Shown piece after piece: positions 57,585 to 64,000 of a stretch of DNA of 64,000 nucleotides; within the stretch, counting starts at the first letter, position 1; each line of letters opens with the position of its first letter. Source of the stretch: a virus. Its lineage: Duplodnaviria > Caudoviricetes. The DNA lies in the IMG/VR virus record IMGVR_UViG_3300042431_000223, positions 1-64,000 of that record, one strand, 5' to 3'. A program made the translations under genes and the position numbers. The notes under the pieces were generated by a model. It did not search any database. It worked only from the letters and a program-made list of their open reading frames with translations, and was not told the DNA's origin.

Positions 57585-58025
57585 CTACAGCTCCTTAATC
57601 AAATCAATTAAGCACTTCTCTACAGCTCTAGAATATGCTTTTTTATTGTGAGGAATTTCTTCAACCGTTAAGAACATTGCATTAACATATACAGTCTTTA
57701 CGTTCCTAGAATAATGTGTAATGTTATTAGCTGTGATAGACATATTGACTACATAATCCCTTTTTAATAACTGTATTCCTATAATGTTTATAAGCCGTTG
57801 GGGTAATGCAATTGTATTAATTGCTAGTTCTACTTTAATGCCTGTGTCACACAAAGCATATTTATTTGCAATTAATTGTTCTGCCGTAGCTACTACTCCA
57901 AAATCAACAGGTCTACCTGCTATAGTACGTAGGTGGGTGTGGTTGCGCACAGTGTCAATCTTATAACATTGAGCGTTTAGTGTAACTGCAAATGCAGTCA
58001 GTAGGATTATAATTAGTTTTTTCAT
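57585..58025 (-). CDS. Secreted protein, possibly a minimal CsgG/TolB_N-like fold
   Basis: Signal peptide MKKLIIILLTAFAVTLNA|Q; helix-strand order and C-terminal helix (KAYSRAVEKCLIDLIKEL) loosely parallel the CsgG-like gene. Confidence 0.65.
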   Translation of the reverse strand: MKKLIIILLTAFAVTLNAQCYKIDTVRNHTHLRTIAGRPVDFGVVATAEQLIANKYALCDTGIKVELAINTIALPQRLINIIGIQLLKRDYVVNMSITANNITHYSRNVKTVYVNAMFLTVEEIPHNKKAYSRAVEKCLIDLIKEL

Positions 58026-58027
58026 GG

Positions 58028-59011
58028 TTAATAAGTTACTTGTCCTGAGTATCCTGGAGCAATAAGATATAGATTTAGTGTGCCTCCTGTAGTAAGGGTT
58101 GAAGTCGTAAATGTACTTACTCCAGGATAAGTTGTGCGTACATTTACTTTAGATGCAACTATGGCATTATATTGAGCAAGTGTAAAGATTCTTACATCAG
58201 GCGCACTTCTCCATCGATTAAATCTTCCTGACTTTCTAGCAGATAAATAATACTTGTCTGCTATGTTTATTCTTCCATCATCATTAAGATCAAATCTATG
58301 ATAGGAAAGACCGTTAATTGTAGTCTTACCTAAGATAATATTAGAAATGCTTTGTATGTCTGTATTGGTGTAAGCCTGAACTCTAGTAGGAGCGTCTACC
58401 TCAATGTAATACTCTTTGGAGGGGTCGTAGGCTTCTGAGATAGAGTAATACCCTGCAGAGTTAGTGTAGATTGTTTTGTAAAGTGTCCACGAAGAAGTAG
58501 TTACTACATAATTAAATTCTAATACATAGGGAAGACTAACATTGTTAGGTAAGTCATTCCATCTACCATTAGATACAAACTGTACGTAGTCTTCGTTACC
58601 TGCGTTGTTTGGTTCTCCAGAGTTCCAGTTTTTATAAGAGTAAGTTTCTCCTGTTACCCATCTCCAAGTTCCCTCAGTTACTTCGTCTGTAAGTCCTATC
58701 CATCCTGAAGGCCAAATATTAAATATAAAACTTTGTTCTGCTGCACTAGTAATAGTTACTAAATAACCACCCATAGCTGCGCAGTTAGCCCTAGCAGTAG
58801 TCCAAGTAGCACTACCTGTAGAACGATAGTAAGAGTGTCCGTTATAATTTTGTTGGTTAGTAAATCCTGCAATAGTAGAGTTTGTTCTTCTGTAGAGTTT
58901 AACAGGTACGTTAGCTGCTCCAGAACCATTTGCATTATAGAGATACCCCGAATAATTAAATTGGGCTATTAGGGGAGTCGAGAATAAAAAAAGAACAATC
59001 AGCCATCTCAT
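58028..59011 (-). CDS. Secreted C-type lectin domain protein with a dockerin-like domain
   Basis: Signal peptide ...TPLIA|Q; CTLD (YNGHSY, GGYLVTITS, WIGLTD, W.SGEPNN, WND); dockerin-like DLNDDGRINIAD. Confidence 0.88.
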   Translation of the reverse strand: MRWLIVLFLFSTPLIAQFNYSGYLYNANGSGAANVPVKLYRRTNSTIAGFTNQQNYNGHSYYRSTGSATWTTARANCAAMGGYLVTITSAAEQSFIFNIWPSGWIGLTDEVTEGTWRWVTGETYSYKNWNSGEPNNAGNEDYVQFVSNGRWNDLPNNVSLPYVLEFNYVVTTSSWTLYKTIYTNSAGYYSISEAYDPSKEYYIEVDAPTRVQAYTNTDIQSISNIILGKTTINGLSYHRFDLNDDGRINIADKYYLSARKSGRFNRWRSAPDVRIFTLAQYNAIVASKVNVRTTYPGVSTFTTSTLTTGGTLNLYLIAPGYSGQVTY

Positions 59012-60393
59012 ATCTTTAATTTACCTCCCATTAAGATTTGATAGTTTACTATATCTTGATTTGCGATATATGTACCTCCCGCAGTCAAGCCAAATTTAAA
59101 AGTCTTAGTTATAGAGTAATTAATGTTTAGGAACGGAACTATAATAGGCTGAGACTCAAATAAACTTTCAGTGTAGTATTTTGTGTATGGTGCGTACACA
59201 CTAGCTGCGATAATGGTAGCATCAATATGTTTAGTTAGTTGTCCTTTATACATAAAACCACCAATTAATAAAGTAGAGATTACTTCTTCTTTAAATAACT
59301 CTCCATAAGAAGCGGCTGCTCCATACAGAGCTGTAAAGTTCTTTAACGAATTTACTCTTACAAAGAGCAGTGAGCCGTTGTAAGACCGAGGCATTAAGTT
59401 AATTCCAGCAGATAATACGTTAATGTGCTTATGCCCTTTTTTGTTAACGCCCATCCAAGATTGCATAGCATTAAAGTTTCCAATCTTTGCATTAACCATA
59501 TAGTCAGCAGACAATCCAATTGAAGCTGTGCCATCTCCTTTAACACGAGTGAAAGACATAGTACCACGTGCATCTTGTGCTTGGTCTTTGACTGTCTGAA
59601 CACCAACAATGTCTCCTGTAACTAGGATAGCTGGTTTCTGTGTTTCTACTTTACCTTTTGCTGCTGACTTTGCAGATGCACTTCCACCTGCTTGTTGTGT
59701 TTCAGATTTTTGTTCTTCTATTTTTTCAGGGGTTTTTTCTTCGGCTGGAGTTTCGCCTTCTCCTCCACTTCCACCACTTCCACTAGAACCTCCTTTAGAT
59801 TTGCTTCCAACACTTACTTGTCCTTGCGACGTATTGGACCCTTGTCCAGATGATTCCCCACCTTGACCAGAGTTATCCCCAGAATTACCAGTAGAATTAT
59901 TACCTCCATTACTACTAGACTTGTCGTTCGAACCTTCATTTTTACTGTCTGTTGTATTTGTTGTTCCTGAAGATGTTGTACTACCTATAGAAGTACTTGA
60001 TCCCATAGAAGTTGAAGATAAATCTAAACTAGATATTGAGTTTAAATTCATCACACTACTAACTAAAGATGTTACTGTATTAGTTGAAGTAGTGGTTGTA
60101 GTTGTTGAAAATACTCCTTCGCAGGGTTTAGAGTTCCGAAAATTCAAGTAGGTAGTATTTAACCAGTTGTCAAATGTACCGTCTTGAAGTTCTGCGTAAC
60201 TAAAACTTCTAACTTGCCTATAGTAACTAATCACTATAGGAGAGTTCATATCTGCGAATATAAACTTTAGCTCTTTTGTACACGGATCTGTGTACGAATA
60301 TGTAAAGGACTGAGCGTTTAAACCCAGTCCTATACACATAAACAAGATTAATATGTTAACTCTTAAAGACACCGTTTCTAATAAGGTTTTCAA
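59008..60393 (-). CDS. Secreted protein: small N-terminal domain, Ser/Gly/Asn linker, C-terminal outer-membrane beta-barrel-like domain
   Basis: Signal peptide ...GLGLNA|Q; two-Cys N-terminal domain; long low-complexity linker; amphipathic strands through to YQILMGGKLKI. Start codon uncertain (TTG 60393 or GTG 60372). Confidence 0.72.
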   Translation of the reverse strand: MKTLLETVSLRVNILILFMCIGLGLNAQSFTYSYTDPCTKELKFIFADMNSPIVISYYRQVRSFSYAELQDGTFDNWLNTTYLNFRNSKPCEGVFSTTTTTTSTNTVTSLVSSVMNLNSISSLDLSSTSMGSSTSIGSTTSSGTTNTTDSKNEGSNDKSSSNGGNNSTGNSGDNSGQGGESSGQGSNTSQGQVSVGSKSKGGSSGSGGSGGEGETPAEEKTPEKIEEQKSETQQAGGSASAKSAAKGKVETQKPAILVTGDIVGVQTVKDQAQDARGTMSFTRVKGDGTASIGLSADYMVNAKIGNFNAMQSWMGVNKKGHKHINVLSAGINLMPRSYNGSLLFVRVNSLKNFTALYGAAASYGELFKEEVISTLLIGGFMYKGQLTKHIDATIIAASVYAPYTKYYTESLFESQPIIVPFLNINYSITKTFKFGLTAGGTYIANQDIVNYQILMGGKLKI

Positions 60394-61045
60394 TCACTTT
60401 GGTAGTTGCTGTTTCAAGCGACTTTCGTGTTGCCTTACCTACGGTACTTTGAGAAAACTTCATATCGTCTAGAGATTTTAAGAATGACTCTCCTACTTTT
60501 ATAGATTCGCCTTCACCAGAACCAATGTAAATTTGTCCTGTTTTAGCGTCTACAAATCGAACTTGCAAACGGATAAAAGTAGTTACCACTACTTTAGCTT
60601 TTCCACCTTGTACGGTCTCGTCCTCGTCTACTGCAAAATCAGCAACGGTTACATAAACAAAGTAGTGAGCAGCTTTAATTTTTCCTTTGCCGTCAATAGG
60701 TTCTTCAAAGACTCCTTTTTTAGAAGCTTTGAACTGAGTTACCATCCTTTCCTTGATTTCACCCTTCTCTTCAGTAAATACAAAACGATTTGTCTCATCT
60801 AAATAATCTAATACGGATTCTGCAAAACCTAAACCTACATTCTTCTCTTGAAGACTTGGGTACATAGCCAACACTTTAGTCATGTCCATGCTAATTACTT
60901 GTACGTTCTTCTTAATAGAATCAGTATATCCAGACACGCTAGAAATATCTTTTTTCTCAATAACCTCATCCTCGGTTGTGGTCTTCATAGAACCACAACC
61001 ATAGATAAGGATTATTAACAGTAGGCTACCAAGGATCTTCTTCAT
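60356..61045 (-). CDS. CsgG/HfaB-family lipoprotein (start MKKIL at 61045)
   Basis: Lipoprotein signal MKKILGSLLLIILIYG|C; NVGLGFAESVLDYL...NRFVF..E; AAHYFVYVTVADF; IRLQVRFVDAKTGQI..GSGEG; FSQSTVGKATRKSLETA. Confidence 0.8.
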   Translation of the reverse strand: MKKILGSLLLIILIYGCGSMKTTTEDEVIEKKDISSVSGYTDSIKKNVQVISMDMTKVLAMYPSLQEKNVGLGFAESVLDYLDETNRFVFTEEKGEIKERMVTQFKASKKGVFEEPIDGKGKIKAAHYFVYVTVADFAVDEDETVQGGKAKVVVTTFIRLQVRFVDAKTGQIYIGSGEGESIKVGESFLKSLDDMKFSQSTVGKATRKSLETATTKVIENLIRNGVFKS

Positions 61046-61343
61046 CAGCTTGGGGTTTAGCGGCAGGAGTTGGAGCAGGAGCAGCTGCAGGTGCAGCTTT
61101 TTCTTTGATGATAATGGTTTTACCTCCACCATCAGTGTTTGCTTGTTGCTTCTGTTCGTTGTTCGTAGTGATGTTAATCACAGGTGCAGGGGCTGATACA
61201 GCAGTAGGAGTCTCAGCTTTTTCTTCGCCTCCACCTAAGTGAGTAGCAAACCAAGCACCACCTGCAGTAATTGCAGTAGTGATTGCTCCAATAATGGCTT
61301 TTTTAGCAGCGGACATACCGCCTTCTTCTTTTTCTTCTGACAT
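61026..61343 (-). CDS. Single-pass membrane protein with a Pro/Ala-rich tail (start MSEEK at 61343)
   Basis: AIIGAITTAITAGGAWFA TM followed by APAPVINITTNN and APAAAPAPTPAAKP. Confidence 0.7.
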   Translation of the reverse strand: MSEEKEEGGMSAAKKAIIGAITTAITAGGAWFATHLGGGEEKAETPTAVSAPAPVINITTNNEQKQQANTDGGGKTIIIKEKAAPAAAPAPTPAAKPQADEEDPW

Positions 61344-61347
61344 AATA

Positions 61348-61698
61348 TTATGGATTAGTTGTGTTTGACAAAGATACACCATCTTCCTCATCTACTTTTT
61401 GGATAAGCATTTTGTCTCTGTCTTCAGAATTGAACCAGTAGTCAACTACTTTGTTCAAGTTACCGACAAATGCTCCTAAGAGGATAAGCAACATTTCTTT
61501 CCAGTCTTCTCCAATAGATGCTCCCAAGAAGACAGCAGCATTAATACCGACAATGATTAGGGTAAACAAGCCTAACACAATGGCAGTGATTCTCCAACGG
61601 TTAGCTTGCATTTGTTGTAGCATGTAGTAGAAACGATTGTTATCTGGTACTGCTACGGGCTCTGCTTGGCCAAAACCAAGTTTGTCTTTTAGTTTCAT
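61348..61698 (-). CDS. Two-TM membrane protein
   Basis: ITAIVLGLFTLIIVGINAAVFL and MLLILLGAFVGNL segments; ATGA overlap with the upstream gene. Confidence 0.72.
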   Translation of the reverse strand: MKLKDKLGFGQAEPVAVPDNNRFYYMLQQMQANRWRITAIVLGLFTLIIVGINAAVFLGASIGEDWKEMLLILLGAFVGNLNKVVDYWFNSEDRDKMLIQKVDEEDGVSLSNTTNP

Positions 61699-63584
61699 AT
61701 GATTAATAGTTTAGAATCTAGGACTTGTTTTTCTGTTTTAAGAGTTAAGATATAAACTCCGTCAGGTAATCTTTCCAAATCTACACTGTATCTATAACTT
61801 CCTACAGGCATGTGCTTGTCTAGAATATTTTGGACTAACTGACCTATTTCATTGTACAAAGACAAGTTTACGTCAGACTCTTCAGCTATCTTGAATTGTA
61901 CTTGAATGGCACCTTCAGAAGGATTTGGAAAAGCAATTAAATCACTTACTTGGTTCATGGATACAGTTCCTTTTCTACGAACCTCAATGATACCCATAGT
62001 AGGCGTAATTACCATGTCTCTTGCTTTGTCATCACCTACGTATTTTTCAGATGTCCAGATAGCTGCAGTAGCCCAAGAGTCTTGAGGTTTCTTAGCAATA
62101 AACTGAAGCGTAAATACAGCCTCTCCGTCATTCAATAGATTAGAATTGGTTAAGTCTGCGCCGCCCCAAGAAACAATTCCATTAGAACGGTTAGTGTAAG
62201 AAGTCCATTTCATAATCTTTTCAGTTACTTCTACGTTCTTAAATTCTAAGTAAGCAGTGTCGTACTTAAGATCTAACTGAAGAGCACCCAAAGATTTTCC
62301 ATTTGTAAGAACTTTAACTGGTACGTTTACTAAGTTTCCACTCTCAACGGTAATTTTCGGCATGTTAATTTCTACTTTATCTAAAGTAGGATTGTCGTAA
62401 GATACTGTTTGGTCAATAATGTATTTCTTAGCATTTGCTTGGTTGACAATCTTAATAGGAGTCAAACGAGCCATCTTAAATCCAGTAGAGTTTGCATCCC
62501 CTTTTACTGCTACGTAATAGGTGATAGAGTCTCTACCATCAATAGTGTAATTAAAGTTATTTACTGTAGCATAAGTTGAAGTTAAGTTAGATGTAGCTCC
62601 GTTAATTGAGTTGTACTCAGCAACAGTAAAGAACATTACATCTTTCTTAGAGTTAGGCCAAGAAGTAAATCTACCTGCTAATCTTCCGTATACTGAGTAT
62701 ACGTCGGCAATATTAATGTCTCCAGTAGTTCCGTTTACGTCCATTGTATAGTAGTCAAATCCTGTTGGAGTGTATTGCCCTAAAATAGATTGGTTAATCT
62801 TCTGTGCATCCGCAGTAGAGAATACGTTACCTGGAGTCATTGTGTCTCCTTTAACGACCATGCGGACATCCCAATATGTAGTATCTAAAAATTCTCTAAA
62901 CACAACATGTCCTACAGAGTTAGTTGCTTTAGCATCTACTTGAGTCCAAGACCCAGTTGGTGCTTTCTTTTCTAAAGACACCCACAAGTTCTTAGCATCA
63001 GAACCTGTTACGTTCTTAAATTTAGCAGCAAAGCGAAGAACCTTCTGATTGAAACGACCACCATAAGAATAAACTACTAACGTAGTATCGTTACCCCAGT
63101 TAGTAGCAGCTTTGTTTGCAAATGATTTCACACCTGCAACTTTCATAGTTTTGATAGAATCTAAGTTGTTCCATACAGCACTACTAGCATGCGTAAATGT
63201 CAAGTCAAAAGTTGCTCCGTTAGAATAGTTAAAAGTAGCACTAGAACCTGTGTACGCTAAAGTTACAGTTAAGAATCCTTGTGCGTTACTATCTACATAC
63301 TGAAGATATTGGTCTGAAGTAGAAATTTTCAAGGAAGGTACTACAGCAGTAAATGCAGTGTTATCGTAGAATATACGAAACTGCATACCTGTGATCTTTT
63401 CAGAAGTAGAAGTGTTATAGAAGTGAAGGGGTGCTACAGTCTGTCCTACAGTAGTTGTAGCCACTTGATAACCTGAGTCAATAACAACCCAATGTCCCGT
63501 ACCTGGAGAAGTGTTTGCACTTTGTGCAAATAAGTCAGTAGCCAAGGTTATTACCCCGACTACAAATAGAATTAATTTTTTCAT
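61695..63584 (-). CDS. T9SS cargo protein: signal peptide, cohesin-like, Cna-B-like, dockerin-like, cohesin, type A CTD
   Basis: SP ...TDLFA|Q; ITGMQFRIFYDNTAF and LGALQLDLKYDTAYLEF cohesin patterns; STADAQKINQSILG...DVNGTTGDINIAD dockerin-like segment; CTD AFPNPS...SLYNEIGQLV...LPDGVYILTL...KLLII. Confidence 0.88.
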   Translation of the reverse strand: MKKLILFVVGVITLATDLFAQSANTSPGTGHWVVIDSGYQVATTTVGQTVAPLHFYNTSTSEKITGMQFRIFYDNTAFTAVVPSLKISTSDQYLQYVDSNAQGFLTVTLAYTGSSATFNYSNGATFDLTFTHASSAVWNNLDSIKTMKVAGVKSFANKAATNWGNDTTLVVYSYGGRFNQKVLRFAAKFKNVTGSDAKNLWVSLEKKAPTGSWTQVDAKATNSVGHVVFREFLDTTYWDVRMVVKGDTMTPGNVFSTADAQKINQSILGQYTPTGFDYYTMDVNGTTGDINIADVYSVYGRLAGRFTSWPNSKKDVMFFTVAEYNSINGATSNLTSTYATVNNFNYTIDGRDSITYYVAVKGDANSTGFKMARLTPIKIVNQANAKKYIIDQTVSYDNPTLDKVEINMPKITVESGNLVNVPVKVLTNGKSLGALQLDLKYDTAYLEFKNVEVTEKIMKWTSYTNRSNGIVSWGGADLTNSNLLNDGEAVFTLQFIAKKPQDSWATAAIWTSEKYVGDDKARDMVITPTMGIIEVRRKGTVSMNQVSDLIAFPNPSEGAIQVQFKIAEESDVNLSLYNEIGQLVQNILDKHMPVGSYRYSVDLERLPDGVYILTLKTEKQVLDSKLLII

Positions 63585-64000
63585 TGTCTATATTTTTGCA
63601 GTTTTTCATAAAGATTTGTCAGTAACCATGACTCAGGGGTTGGAATTTTTTGGATGAAGGATAACTCGTACATGTAGCATTTATATTCTTCTTCCGCTTC
63701 ACTCATGACAATGCCTTCTTTTGCGTAGAAAAGATGTTGACTCTCATGAACTAAAACGCAAGCTAAGTTGTTAATTGAATTTAACTTAATGTCTGCGTCT
63801 GCTACAAGTATGGTATAGCGACCTTCAACTATACCTGTGGAAGAAAAAGAACTGTTCCAAAAATCAATCCGCTCACATACTTCAGTAAAAACTATGTACT
63901 TATCGATATCATAGTTTTTAATTAGGCTGATTGCCGAATCAATTTTTAAGTCCCAGCCATCCCCTGCCTTTGACAATGTTTGACAAAAGCAGGAGTTGAC
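63581..64000 (-). CDS. Putative secreted zinc metallopeptidase; 5' end lies outside the window
   Basis: The frame stays open to base 64000 (VNSCFC|QTLSKAGDGW...), consistent with the tail of a signal peptide; LVHESQH (HExxH) plus downstream EEYKCY. Confidence 0.65.
   Translation of the reverse strand, partial: VNSCFCQTLSKAGDGWDLKIDSAISLIKNYDIDKYIVFTEVCERIDFWNSSFSSTGIVEGRYTILVADADIKLNSINNLACVLVHESQHLFYAKEGIVMSEAEEEYKCYMYELSFIQKIPTPESWLLTNLYEKLQKYRQ

Follow-up and report, generated by a model that had tools for sequence, protein, structure and literature searches.

The stretch of DNA analyzed here (64,000 nucleotides, hereafter the window) corresponds to positions 1 to 64,000 of the IMG/VR virus record IMGVR_UViG_3300042431_000223, a contig of 75,005 bases that is judged 64% complete and that comes from a lake phage of the crAss-like group, related to crAssphage. 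Near the end of the window lies a gene for a scaffoldin-like protein, designated P0001, in which an N-terminal signal peptide is followed by a first cohesin, a beta-sandwich, a dockerin-like module, a spacer, a second cohesin and a type A C-terminal sorting domain (CTD) of the secretion system of type IX (T9SS). This gene stands at the head of a tightly packed and conserved set of genes for exported proteins (the cassette), one of which is a C-type lectin that contains a dockerin-like module of its own. The gene and the predicted features of its product are located as follows:

61695-63584, minus strand: scaffoldin-like gene P0001, a single open reading frame (ORF) of 629 residues
63522-63584, minus strand: signal peptide, residues 1-21 (MKKLILFVVGVITLATDLFA, followed by Q), read by eye
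63099-63458, minus strand: cohesin 1, residues 43-162, PF00963
62853-63038, minus strand: five-strand beta-sandwich, residues 183-244, from the strands of the structural model and a weak PITM1-3 match
62667-62837, minus strand: dockerin-like module, residues 250-306 approximately, with a degenerate first F-hand and a second F-hand loop DVNGTTGDINIAD
61971-62387, minus strand: cohesin 2, residues 400-538, with PF00963 at residues 405-521
61701-61931, minus strand: T9SS type A CTD, residues 552-628, ending one residue before the stop codon

The phage origin of this gene is certain, in agreement with what the original prediction, made from the sequence of the window, had held: the gene sits in a block of phage genes on one strand of an IMG/VR virus record and is surrounded by genes for the terminase, the portal, the major head protein, tail proteins and an endolysin. 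Downstream of it lie the large terminase, the portal and the major head protein (PHROG E-values of 1e-96, 1e-97 and 3e-27, respectively), and upstream, in the rest of the record, the tail and fiber proteins and the endolysin. The portal is closest to those of crAss-like phages of Bacteroides, Flavobacterium and Cellulophaga.

Domain organization of the scaffoldin-like protein

A structural model of P0001 was obtained with AlphaFold2 (AF2) from an alignment of 27 homologs of 22-92% identity, and has a mean predicted local distance difference test score (pLDDT) of 81. In this model, the signal-peptide helix is followed by an all-beta region (residues 30-180), a five-strand sandwich (residues 183-244), three helices (residues 257-302), a spacer rich in beta structure, another all-beta domain (residues 400-538) and a seven-strand terminal sandwich, and residues 30-370 form one confident block. 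The original prediction had proposed a signal peptide, a cohesin-like domain at about 63190-63480, a cohesin at about 62085-62380 and a type A CTD at about 61698-61935, and each of these is recovered by the analyses described below; all of its domain coordinates, moreover, fall within a few dozen bases of those found here. Read by eye, the signal peptide is of the Bacteroidota type, with MKK, a hydrophobic core and LFA/QS, and the n-h-c pattern with ...AQ is kept in 20 homologs of P0001.

The two cohesins are recognized with different ease. Cohesin 1 scores 24.3-24.7 bits against PF00963 (E 4e-5 to 1e-6), a borderline pass of the cut-off of 24.1, and its counterparts in relatives stay below this cut-off with 18.8-22.8 bits. 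The domain is all-beta in the AF2 model, with a pLDDT of about 90, and in a VIA search with the whole model a cohesin-dyad match spans it. Cohesin 2 reaches 37-38 bits against the same family, and residues 392-539 superpose on type I cellulosome cohesins both in Foldseek (template-modeling score of 0.75-0.83) and in VIA-align (Z 15-17, root-mean-square deviation of 1.8-2.6 Å, 130-146 residues). A recent duplication as the origin of the pair was considered and rejected because pairwise comparison detects no similarity between cohesin 1 and cohesin 2; this mutual dissimilarity indicates that both are old and that they presumably differ in specificity. The stretch between cohesin 1 and the dockerin-like module had been called Cna-B-like. 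A beta-sandwich is indeed modeled there, at residues 183-244, but the Cna-B label found no confirmation, the weak PITM1-3 match being the only family signal.

At the other end of the protein, the CTD scores 42-47 bits against PF18962 (cut-off 27) and 35.7 bits against TIGR04183 (cut-off 23), and in the AF2 model it forms seven strands over residues 550-628 with a pLDDT of 76-83. P0001 thereby bears the predicted marks of a T9SS type A cargo, namely scores above the cut-offs of the hidden Markov models (HMMs), position at the extreme C-terminus, an N-terminal Sec signal peptide and the seven-strand fold. FlgD_ig also matches the CTD weakly, and the lower BFVD matches correspond to Big and FN3 tail proteins. 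Ig-like domains abound in the structural proteins of phages, and P0001 might on these grounds be regarded as a decoration or tail protein of the virion whose 'sorting domain' is nothing but an Ig-like fold. This is extremely improbable in view of the conserved and cleavable signal peptide, of a CTD that lies above two curated cut-offs and is strictly C-terminal, and of neighbors that are a lipoprotein and membrane proteins; furthermore, P0001 has no match in the PHROGs, structural families included.

The dockerin-like module

A dockerin-like module had been placed by the original prediction at about 62690-62825. The proposal holds as far as the invariant residues of the Ca-loop and the in-register matches to dockerins are concerned, whereas the Dockerin_1 HMM leaves the module unmatched. 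In the AF2 model the module consists of three helices, and D282, N284 and D294, which belong to the F-hand Ca-loop, are invariant in 21 diverse copies of it. Only the helix-start Asp is kept in the first segment, and the second Ca-loop has 13 residues in this phage lineage, one extra. It is because of this first half without DxN and of the extra residue in the second loop that the module is termed dockerin-like here.

Three comparisons relate the module to dockerins. Residues 210-341 of P0001 share 36% identity with the C-terminal half of the neighboring lectin, whose paralogous module (loop DLNDDGRINIAD) scores 18.2 bits against Dockerin_1 at 58256-58366, below the cut-off of 22.9. A PDB search with the module profile gave weak matches (E 0.04-1.2), among which dockerin chains account for seven of 12, and for four of the top ten, and these are in register across both halves of the module. 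In hhalign, the module profile falls exactly on the Dockerin_1 that Pfam recognizes in bacterial proteins (E 9e-5 and 0.16). The module thus appears to be homologous to true dockerins, with a single canonical Ca site predicted.

Origin and distribution of the scaffoldin family

The distant matches of the cohesin-CTD part are long bacterial proteins (E 1e-8 to 1e-12), and the two such clusters with an NCBI record, from Melioribacteraceae and Bacteroidales, bear the name 'T9SS type A sorting domain-containing protein'. Of the eight bacterial proteins scanned, four end in Dockerin_1, Cohesin and Por_Secre_tail and others have retained a portion of this tail; a sandwich of the CarboxypepD_reg or SdrD_B type is present in three. 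From the sandwich to the end, the module order of these bacterial T9SS cargo tails is the same as in the phage protein, and it is on their Pfam-positive dockerin that the phage module aligns. Because of this shared order, P0001 from residue 183 onward can be assigned to a known type of cargo tail, to which the phage protein seems to have added an extra cohesin in place of the enzyme or adhesin head. The phage protein differs from the bacterial tails in this N-terminal cohesin, in a dockerin-cohesin spacer of about 95 residues and in its degenerate dockerin. It also differs in that its full-length family is nearly restricted to phages and comes with a dedicated partner and a cassette. We know of no experimental study of the bacterial dockerin-cohesin-CTD tails.

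The full-length family was detected in 356 viral contigs and in two loci among 185,579 prokaryote species genomes. One of these loci is a 16.5-kb contig that was likely mis-binned into a metagenome-assembled genome (MAG), and the other a 254-kb MAG contig. An origin of the scaffoldin gene from a prophage or from a host gene was rejected, since the gene lies within the phage late region and the prokaryote loci are MAG contigs. In metagenomes the family is very common: 1374 clusters matched at E <= 0.001 among the 8000 candidates scored, and the best 120 clusters, which are those listed, are all at least 80% identical.

The cassette of exported proteins

Every protein of the cassette has a signal peptide, a lipobox or membrane helices. 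Besides the scaffoldin, it comprises the following members, some of which have homologs in the cultured Flavobacterium phage vB_FspM_immuto (MW353176; immuto in the following):

63581-64000, continuing to record base 64039, minus strand: 152-residue protein with signal peptide and HExxH motif (VHESQH), no Pfam family
61348-61698, minus strand: 116-residue protein with two membrane helices, weak DUF456/DUF485 matches
61026-61391, minus strand: small single-pass membrane protein with a Pro/Ala-rich tail, likely start M17, homolog of immuto gp16
60356-61048, minus strand: lipoprotein of 230 residues with predicted CsgG fold, lipobox LIYGC
59008-60393, minus strand: exported protein of 461 residues, likely an outer-membrane barrel
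58028-59011, minus strand: C-type lectin of 327 residues, Lectin_C (PF00059) 66.8 bits (cut-off 22.6)
57585-58025, minus strand: secreted protein of 146 residues with signal peptide, homolog of immuto gp19, also in six other loci

The lectin, whose presence nearby the original prediction had noticed, is found at 58028-59011 and does carry the paralogous dockerin-like module. Its lectin domain (residues 68-163, with EPN at residue 133 and WND at residue 151) is inserted in a loop of a paralog of the sandwich-plus-dockerin region of the scaffoldin, and the protein has no CTD. In C-type lectins, EPN and WND go with Ca-dependent binding of mannose/GlcNAc-type sugars.

The lipoprotein, which has the lipobox in eight of nine homologs, resembles CsgG by fold. 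Its AF2 model is of moderate quality (pLDDT 62), and CsgG is the top match in Foldseek (E 1e-6) as well as the first of 48,161 chains in VIA (Z 12.0, root-mean-square deviation of 3.0 Å, 149 residues), where it is followed by LptE, PelC and Cj1090c at Z 8-10. The look-alikes in the ESM Atlas are CsgG as well. At the sequence level, neither Pfam (PF03783) nor PDB profile searches gave a CsgG match, and the nine homologs yielded lipoprotein-signal matches only in Pfam. On its model, the protein is predicted to be an outer-membrane lipoprotein of the CsgG fold. The 461-residue protein encoded next to it is made up of a small N-domain with two Cys, a linker of low complexity and a C-terminal domain of some 200 residues, and had no meaningful match in Pfam or in a PDB profile search. 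Its look-alikes in the ESM Atlas, taken as a lead only, are porins and autotransporter barrels, and the C-terminal domain is probably an outer-membrane barrel. The linker, rich in Ser, Thr, Gly and Asn, varies from absent to about 230 residues among the window and the related loci L006, L058, L104, L108, L109, L090, L091 and L093, and looks like a stalk of adjustable length.

Among the remaining members, the HExxH protein, with its metallopeptidase-like motif, could process cassette proteins; its gene overlaps the start of the scaffoldin gene by ATGA and adjoins the scaffoldin gene in L058 too. The small single-pass protein is conserved in the cassette, the 116-residue protein changes its position among phages, and the 146-residue protein is the last conserved member. 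PADLOC gave no match for eight cassette proteins. Around the cassette, sites resembling promoters and terminators are no commoner than in shuffled sequence, so that a transcription unit could not be delimited from them.

The location of these genes raises the question of whether part of the cassette serves lysis, with the single-pass protein and the lipoprotein acting as a spanin-like pair, the two-helix protein as a holin and the scaffold as an accessory. Two other genes are relevant to this idea:

64040-64690 of the record: endolysin, two genes upstream of the scaffoldin gene
933-1352 of the window, minus strand: holin, Pfam Phage_holin_4_1, 24.4 bits

In favor of a lysis function are the proximity of the endolysin gene and the overlap between the membrane-protein gene and the lipoprotein gene, as the genes of spanin pairs often overlap. 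The Pfam-supported holin, however, is encoded far away, and the lipoprotein, with its approximately 210 residues and its CsgG fold, is unlike o-spanins; in addition, the cassette of immuto sits among replication and nucleotide genes, and the cassette travels with cohesin and lectin genes. A lysis role is hence very unlikely. The distance of about 63 kb between the holin and the endolysin means that the lysis genes of this phage are scattered.

The cassette in other phages

Contigs with scaffoldins of 24-50% identity have most of the cassette in unchanged order, and the order as such is kept over an identity range of 24-90%; the lectin and the 146- and 116-residue proteins were not found in all loci. 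In immuto, a myovirus of 160 kb that is unrelated to crAss-like phages, the cassette corresponds to gp13-gp19, with homologs of six cassette genes at 24-54% identity. It differs from the cassette of the window in having the lectin gene first and in that its scaffold is split into two exported proteins: gp14 combines a signal peptide with cohesin 1 and the dockerin, whereas gp15 has a signal peptide of its own together with cohesin 2 and the CTD. In GenBank, gp13 is labeled 'lectin C-type domain-containing protein' and gp15 'cohesin domain-containing protein'. Five further records with the cassette yielded no crAss-type portal. Two of them are complete genomes with terminal repeats, of 166 and 197 kb; for these two genomes only, the absence of the portal is read as belonging to a different phage lineage. 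The occurrence of the cassette in immuto and in complete genomes without a crAss-type portal implies that it moves between phage lineages.

The partner protein, represented in the window by the lectin, keeps its docking frame (the first 45 and last 150 residues approximately) across lineages, while the head inserted in this frame is replaced or duplicated. Partners with differing heads were found at the following positions:

L104, 13228-14883: partner with two lectin-like stretches
L058, 12627-13832: partner with a head lacking EPN and WND
L108, 13593-14711: partner with a head lacking EPN and WND
L109, 13813-14946: partner with a head lacking EPN and WND

Counting of modules in the record of the window and in five genomes at least 92% complete gave exactly one CTD, two cohesins and two dockerin-like modules. 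Both cohesins reside in the scaffoldin, and of the dockerin-like modules one is in the scaffoldin and the other in the head-bearing partner. From a dedicated docking system one would expect just such a closed complement, two plugs for two sockets.

These data also bear on the possibility that no assembly between molecules takes place. The dockerin-cohesin-CTD tail would then be a self-contained stalk with the dockerin folded back on one of the cohesins in its own chain, something that bacterial T9SS cargo may do as well, and the lectin and the other neighbors would act by themselves, in the outer membrane or the periplasm. Many unrelated bacterial enzyme and adhesin cargoes end in this tail too, which points to a generic function in export or anchoring, and both the modeling of residues 30-370 as one confident block and the lack of an outer-membrane export tag in the lectin agree with such a stalk. 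Yet immuto places the dockerin and cohesin 2 on two separately exported proteins, the dockerin-like module of the lectin is kept in every lineage, even where the head has been replaced, and sockets and plugs number exactly two each. A stalk that works alone is consequently regarded as quite unlikely.

A proposed docking system on the infected cell

Taken together, the data make it probable, at roughly 0.6, that P0001 is a phage scaffoldin exported by the T9SS and that, on the infected cell's envelope, it docks a lectin head which can be exchanged. We infer a route in which the Sec signal peptide would bring the scaffoldin into the periplasm and the type A sorting domain would then take it across the outer membrane through the T9SS of the host, after which it would be anchored at the surface or released, like other type A cargo. 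The two very different cohesins would be the sockets for the only two dockerin-like plugs of the phage, that of the scaffoldin itself and that of the C-type lectin, which has no sorting domain. The lectin may cross the outer membrane in complex with the scaffoldin or, alternatively, through the lipoprotein and the barrel. The other cassette proteins (the membrane anchors, the CsgG-fold lipoprotein and the likely barrel) probably insert, export or anchor the assembly. The infected cell would thereby bear on its envelope a head that binds sugars in a Ca-dependent way and that is exchangeable between phage lineages. As for the benefit to the phage, we favor that the device keeps host cells or glycan-rich particles near, or that it masks a glycan receptor.

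Several points weigh against this reading. Pfam Dockerin_1 (PF00404) has no match on P0001 even at an E-value of 10 and its cut-off is reached by neither of the two modules; the first Ca-loop is degenerate, and in this lineage the second has an additional residue. The most divergent cassettes, L090, L091 and L093, have no detectable lectin partner. That the host has a T9SS is something we infer from the tag together with the signal peptides and the relatives. For the passage of the lectin over the outer membrane, a CsgG-like channel is as much a guess as piggy-back export. Finally, the dockerin could bind a cohesin of its own chain.

This last point is also relevant to the self-polymerization into a surface mesh that recruits the lectin, as had been envisaged in the original prediction. 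Recruitment of the lectin is a reasonable proposal because the nearby lectin has a paralogous dockerin-like module, and self-polymerization is possible because one chain holds a plug and sockets. Binding within a chain or a strict hierarchical pairing fits equally well as a self-polymerizing mesh, and the split of the scaffold in immuto speaks for pairing in trans, though not for a mesh. For the additional idea that P0001 jams the T9SS or the gliding machinery, nothing was found in support.

The same assembly could also be built for a different purpose. In receptor masking, the lectin would bind the surface glycan of the host, which would be the receptor of the phage, thus blocking superinfection and preventing the loss of virions on debris, and phage T5 offers a comparable case in its lipoprotein Llp, which masks FhuA. 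The EPN/WND motif of mannose/GlcNAc-type lectins fits this purpose, and the swapping of heads between lineages is what would be expected if they track variable host glycans. Superinfection roles have been suggested for phage T9SS cargo (PMC7468147). A two-socket scaffold, a lipoprotein and a barrel are nonetheless unnecessary for masking, and the present evidence does not separate masking from adhesion, so that masking as the purpose of the assembly is considered unlikely.

A more far-reaching version of the docked lectin head is put forward only tentatively. The cassette would in this case be a self-contained envelope device, built by the phage and mobile among unrelated Bacteroidota phages, in which the tagged scaffoldin takes the untagged lectin out piggy-back through the T9SS in a folded cohesin-dockerin complex, the lipoprotein and barrel serve as anchor, and the heads capture fresh hosts for the burst. 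We consider this whole chain of events doubtful; if true, it would represent the first natural viral cohesin-dockerin system and the first case of T9SS hitch-hiking.

Relation to known systems

The plug-and-socket logic and the cohesin fold (Z 15-17) are shared with the cellulosome scaffoldins of Clostridia, where anchoring and adaptor scaffoldins go together with dockerin-tagged subunits, and the gp14/gp15 split of immuto reproduces the adaptor plus anchor layout of cellulosomes. In contrast to these, the phage system has only two sockets and two plugs, carries a lectin and not an enzyme as cargo, has a dockerin with a single canonical Ca-loop and is encoded by a virus. In Cloacimonadota (Ca. 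Stygibacter), a cohesin scaffoldin anchored by a T9SS CTD has been inferred (PMC8542988).

Two other groups of phages encode proteins related in part to those described here. In the 'Cryophage', genes with T9SS type A sorting domains vary between variants and have been proposed to use host secretion (Bellas et al., 2020; PMC7468147). Their cargoes are an endoglucanase, a GH39 protein and a PA14 protein, and neither a cohesin or dockerin nor a lectin partner or envelope cassette is described for them. In pelagimyophages, a role in aggregation or 'sibling capture' has been proposed for a csgG/csgF 'curli' cluster (Zaragoza-Solas et al., 2020; PMC7029224). This cluster resembles the present cassette in that a CsgG-type outer-membrane lipoprotein is encoded by a phage in a small operon of exported proteins. 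It differs in that CsgG and CsgF are recognizable by sequence, the hosts are SAR11 and a T9SS tag, cohesin, dockerin and lectin are lacking, whereas in the present cassette the lipoprotein is CsgG-like by fold only and CsgF was not found. Judging by titles and abstracts, none of the six papers listed under the name of immuto (out of eight that contain it) is about the cassette, and a literature search retrieved no report of a viral cohesin-dockerin system. Phage T9SS cargo, phage CsgG and bacterial dockerin-cohesin-CTD tails are thus known already, and it is their combination in a phage that appears to be new.

Should the docking of a lectin head by P0001 prove true, lytic phages of the abundant freshwater and marine Bacteroidota would re-dress the surface of the doomed cell with a cellulosome-style kit and the T9SS of the host. 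This has a bearing on phage adsorption, superinfection and host finding in dilute waters, on the role of the widespread dockerin-cohesin-CTD tails in bacterial T9SS cargo, and on whether the T9SS can export protein complexes. As immuto and Flavobacterium sp. LMO8 form a cultured pair, the idea is directly testable. The modules could, moreover, serve as orthogonal Ca-dependent docking pairs for surface display in Bacteroidota.

Other genes of the phage

Three further observations concern genes outside the cassette. Past the head genes, three giant ORFs in a row, with 2275, 2792 and 2462 residues, occupy window positions 1771-24407 on the minus strand; we take them to resemble the block of virion RNA polymerase and ejected proteins of crAss-like phages. 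Two additional genes are located as follows:

2-382 of the window, cut by the window start, minus strand: exported non-specific DNA/RNA endonuclease with signal peptide, Endonuclease_NS E 1e-16
7369-7980 of L004, corresponding to record bases 70868-71479, plus strand: ferredoxin-like auxiliary gene, phrog_3704 E 4e-41

By eye, the N-terminus of the endonuclease resembles that of immuto gp12, which is annotated as 'endonuclease G' and adjoins the immuto cassette. The ferredoxin-like gene lies past the tail genes, on the opposite strand.

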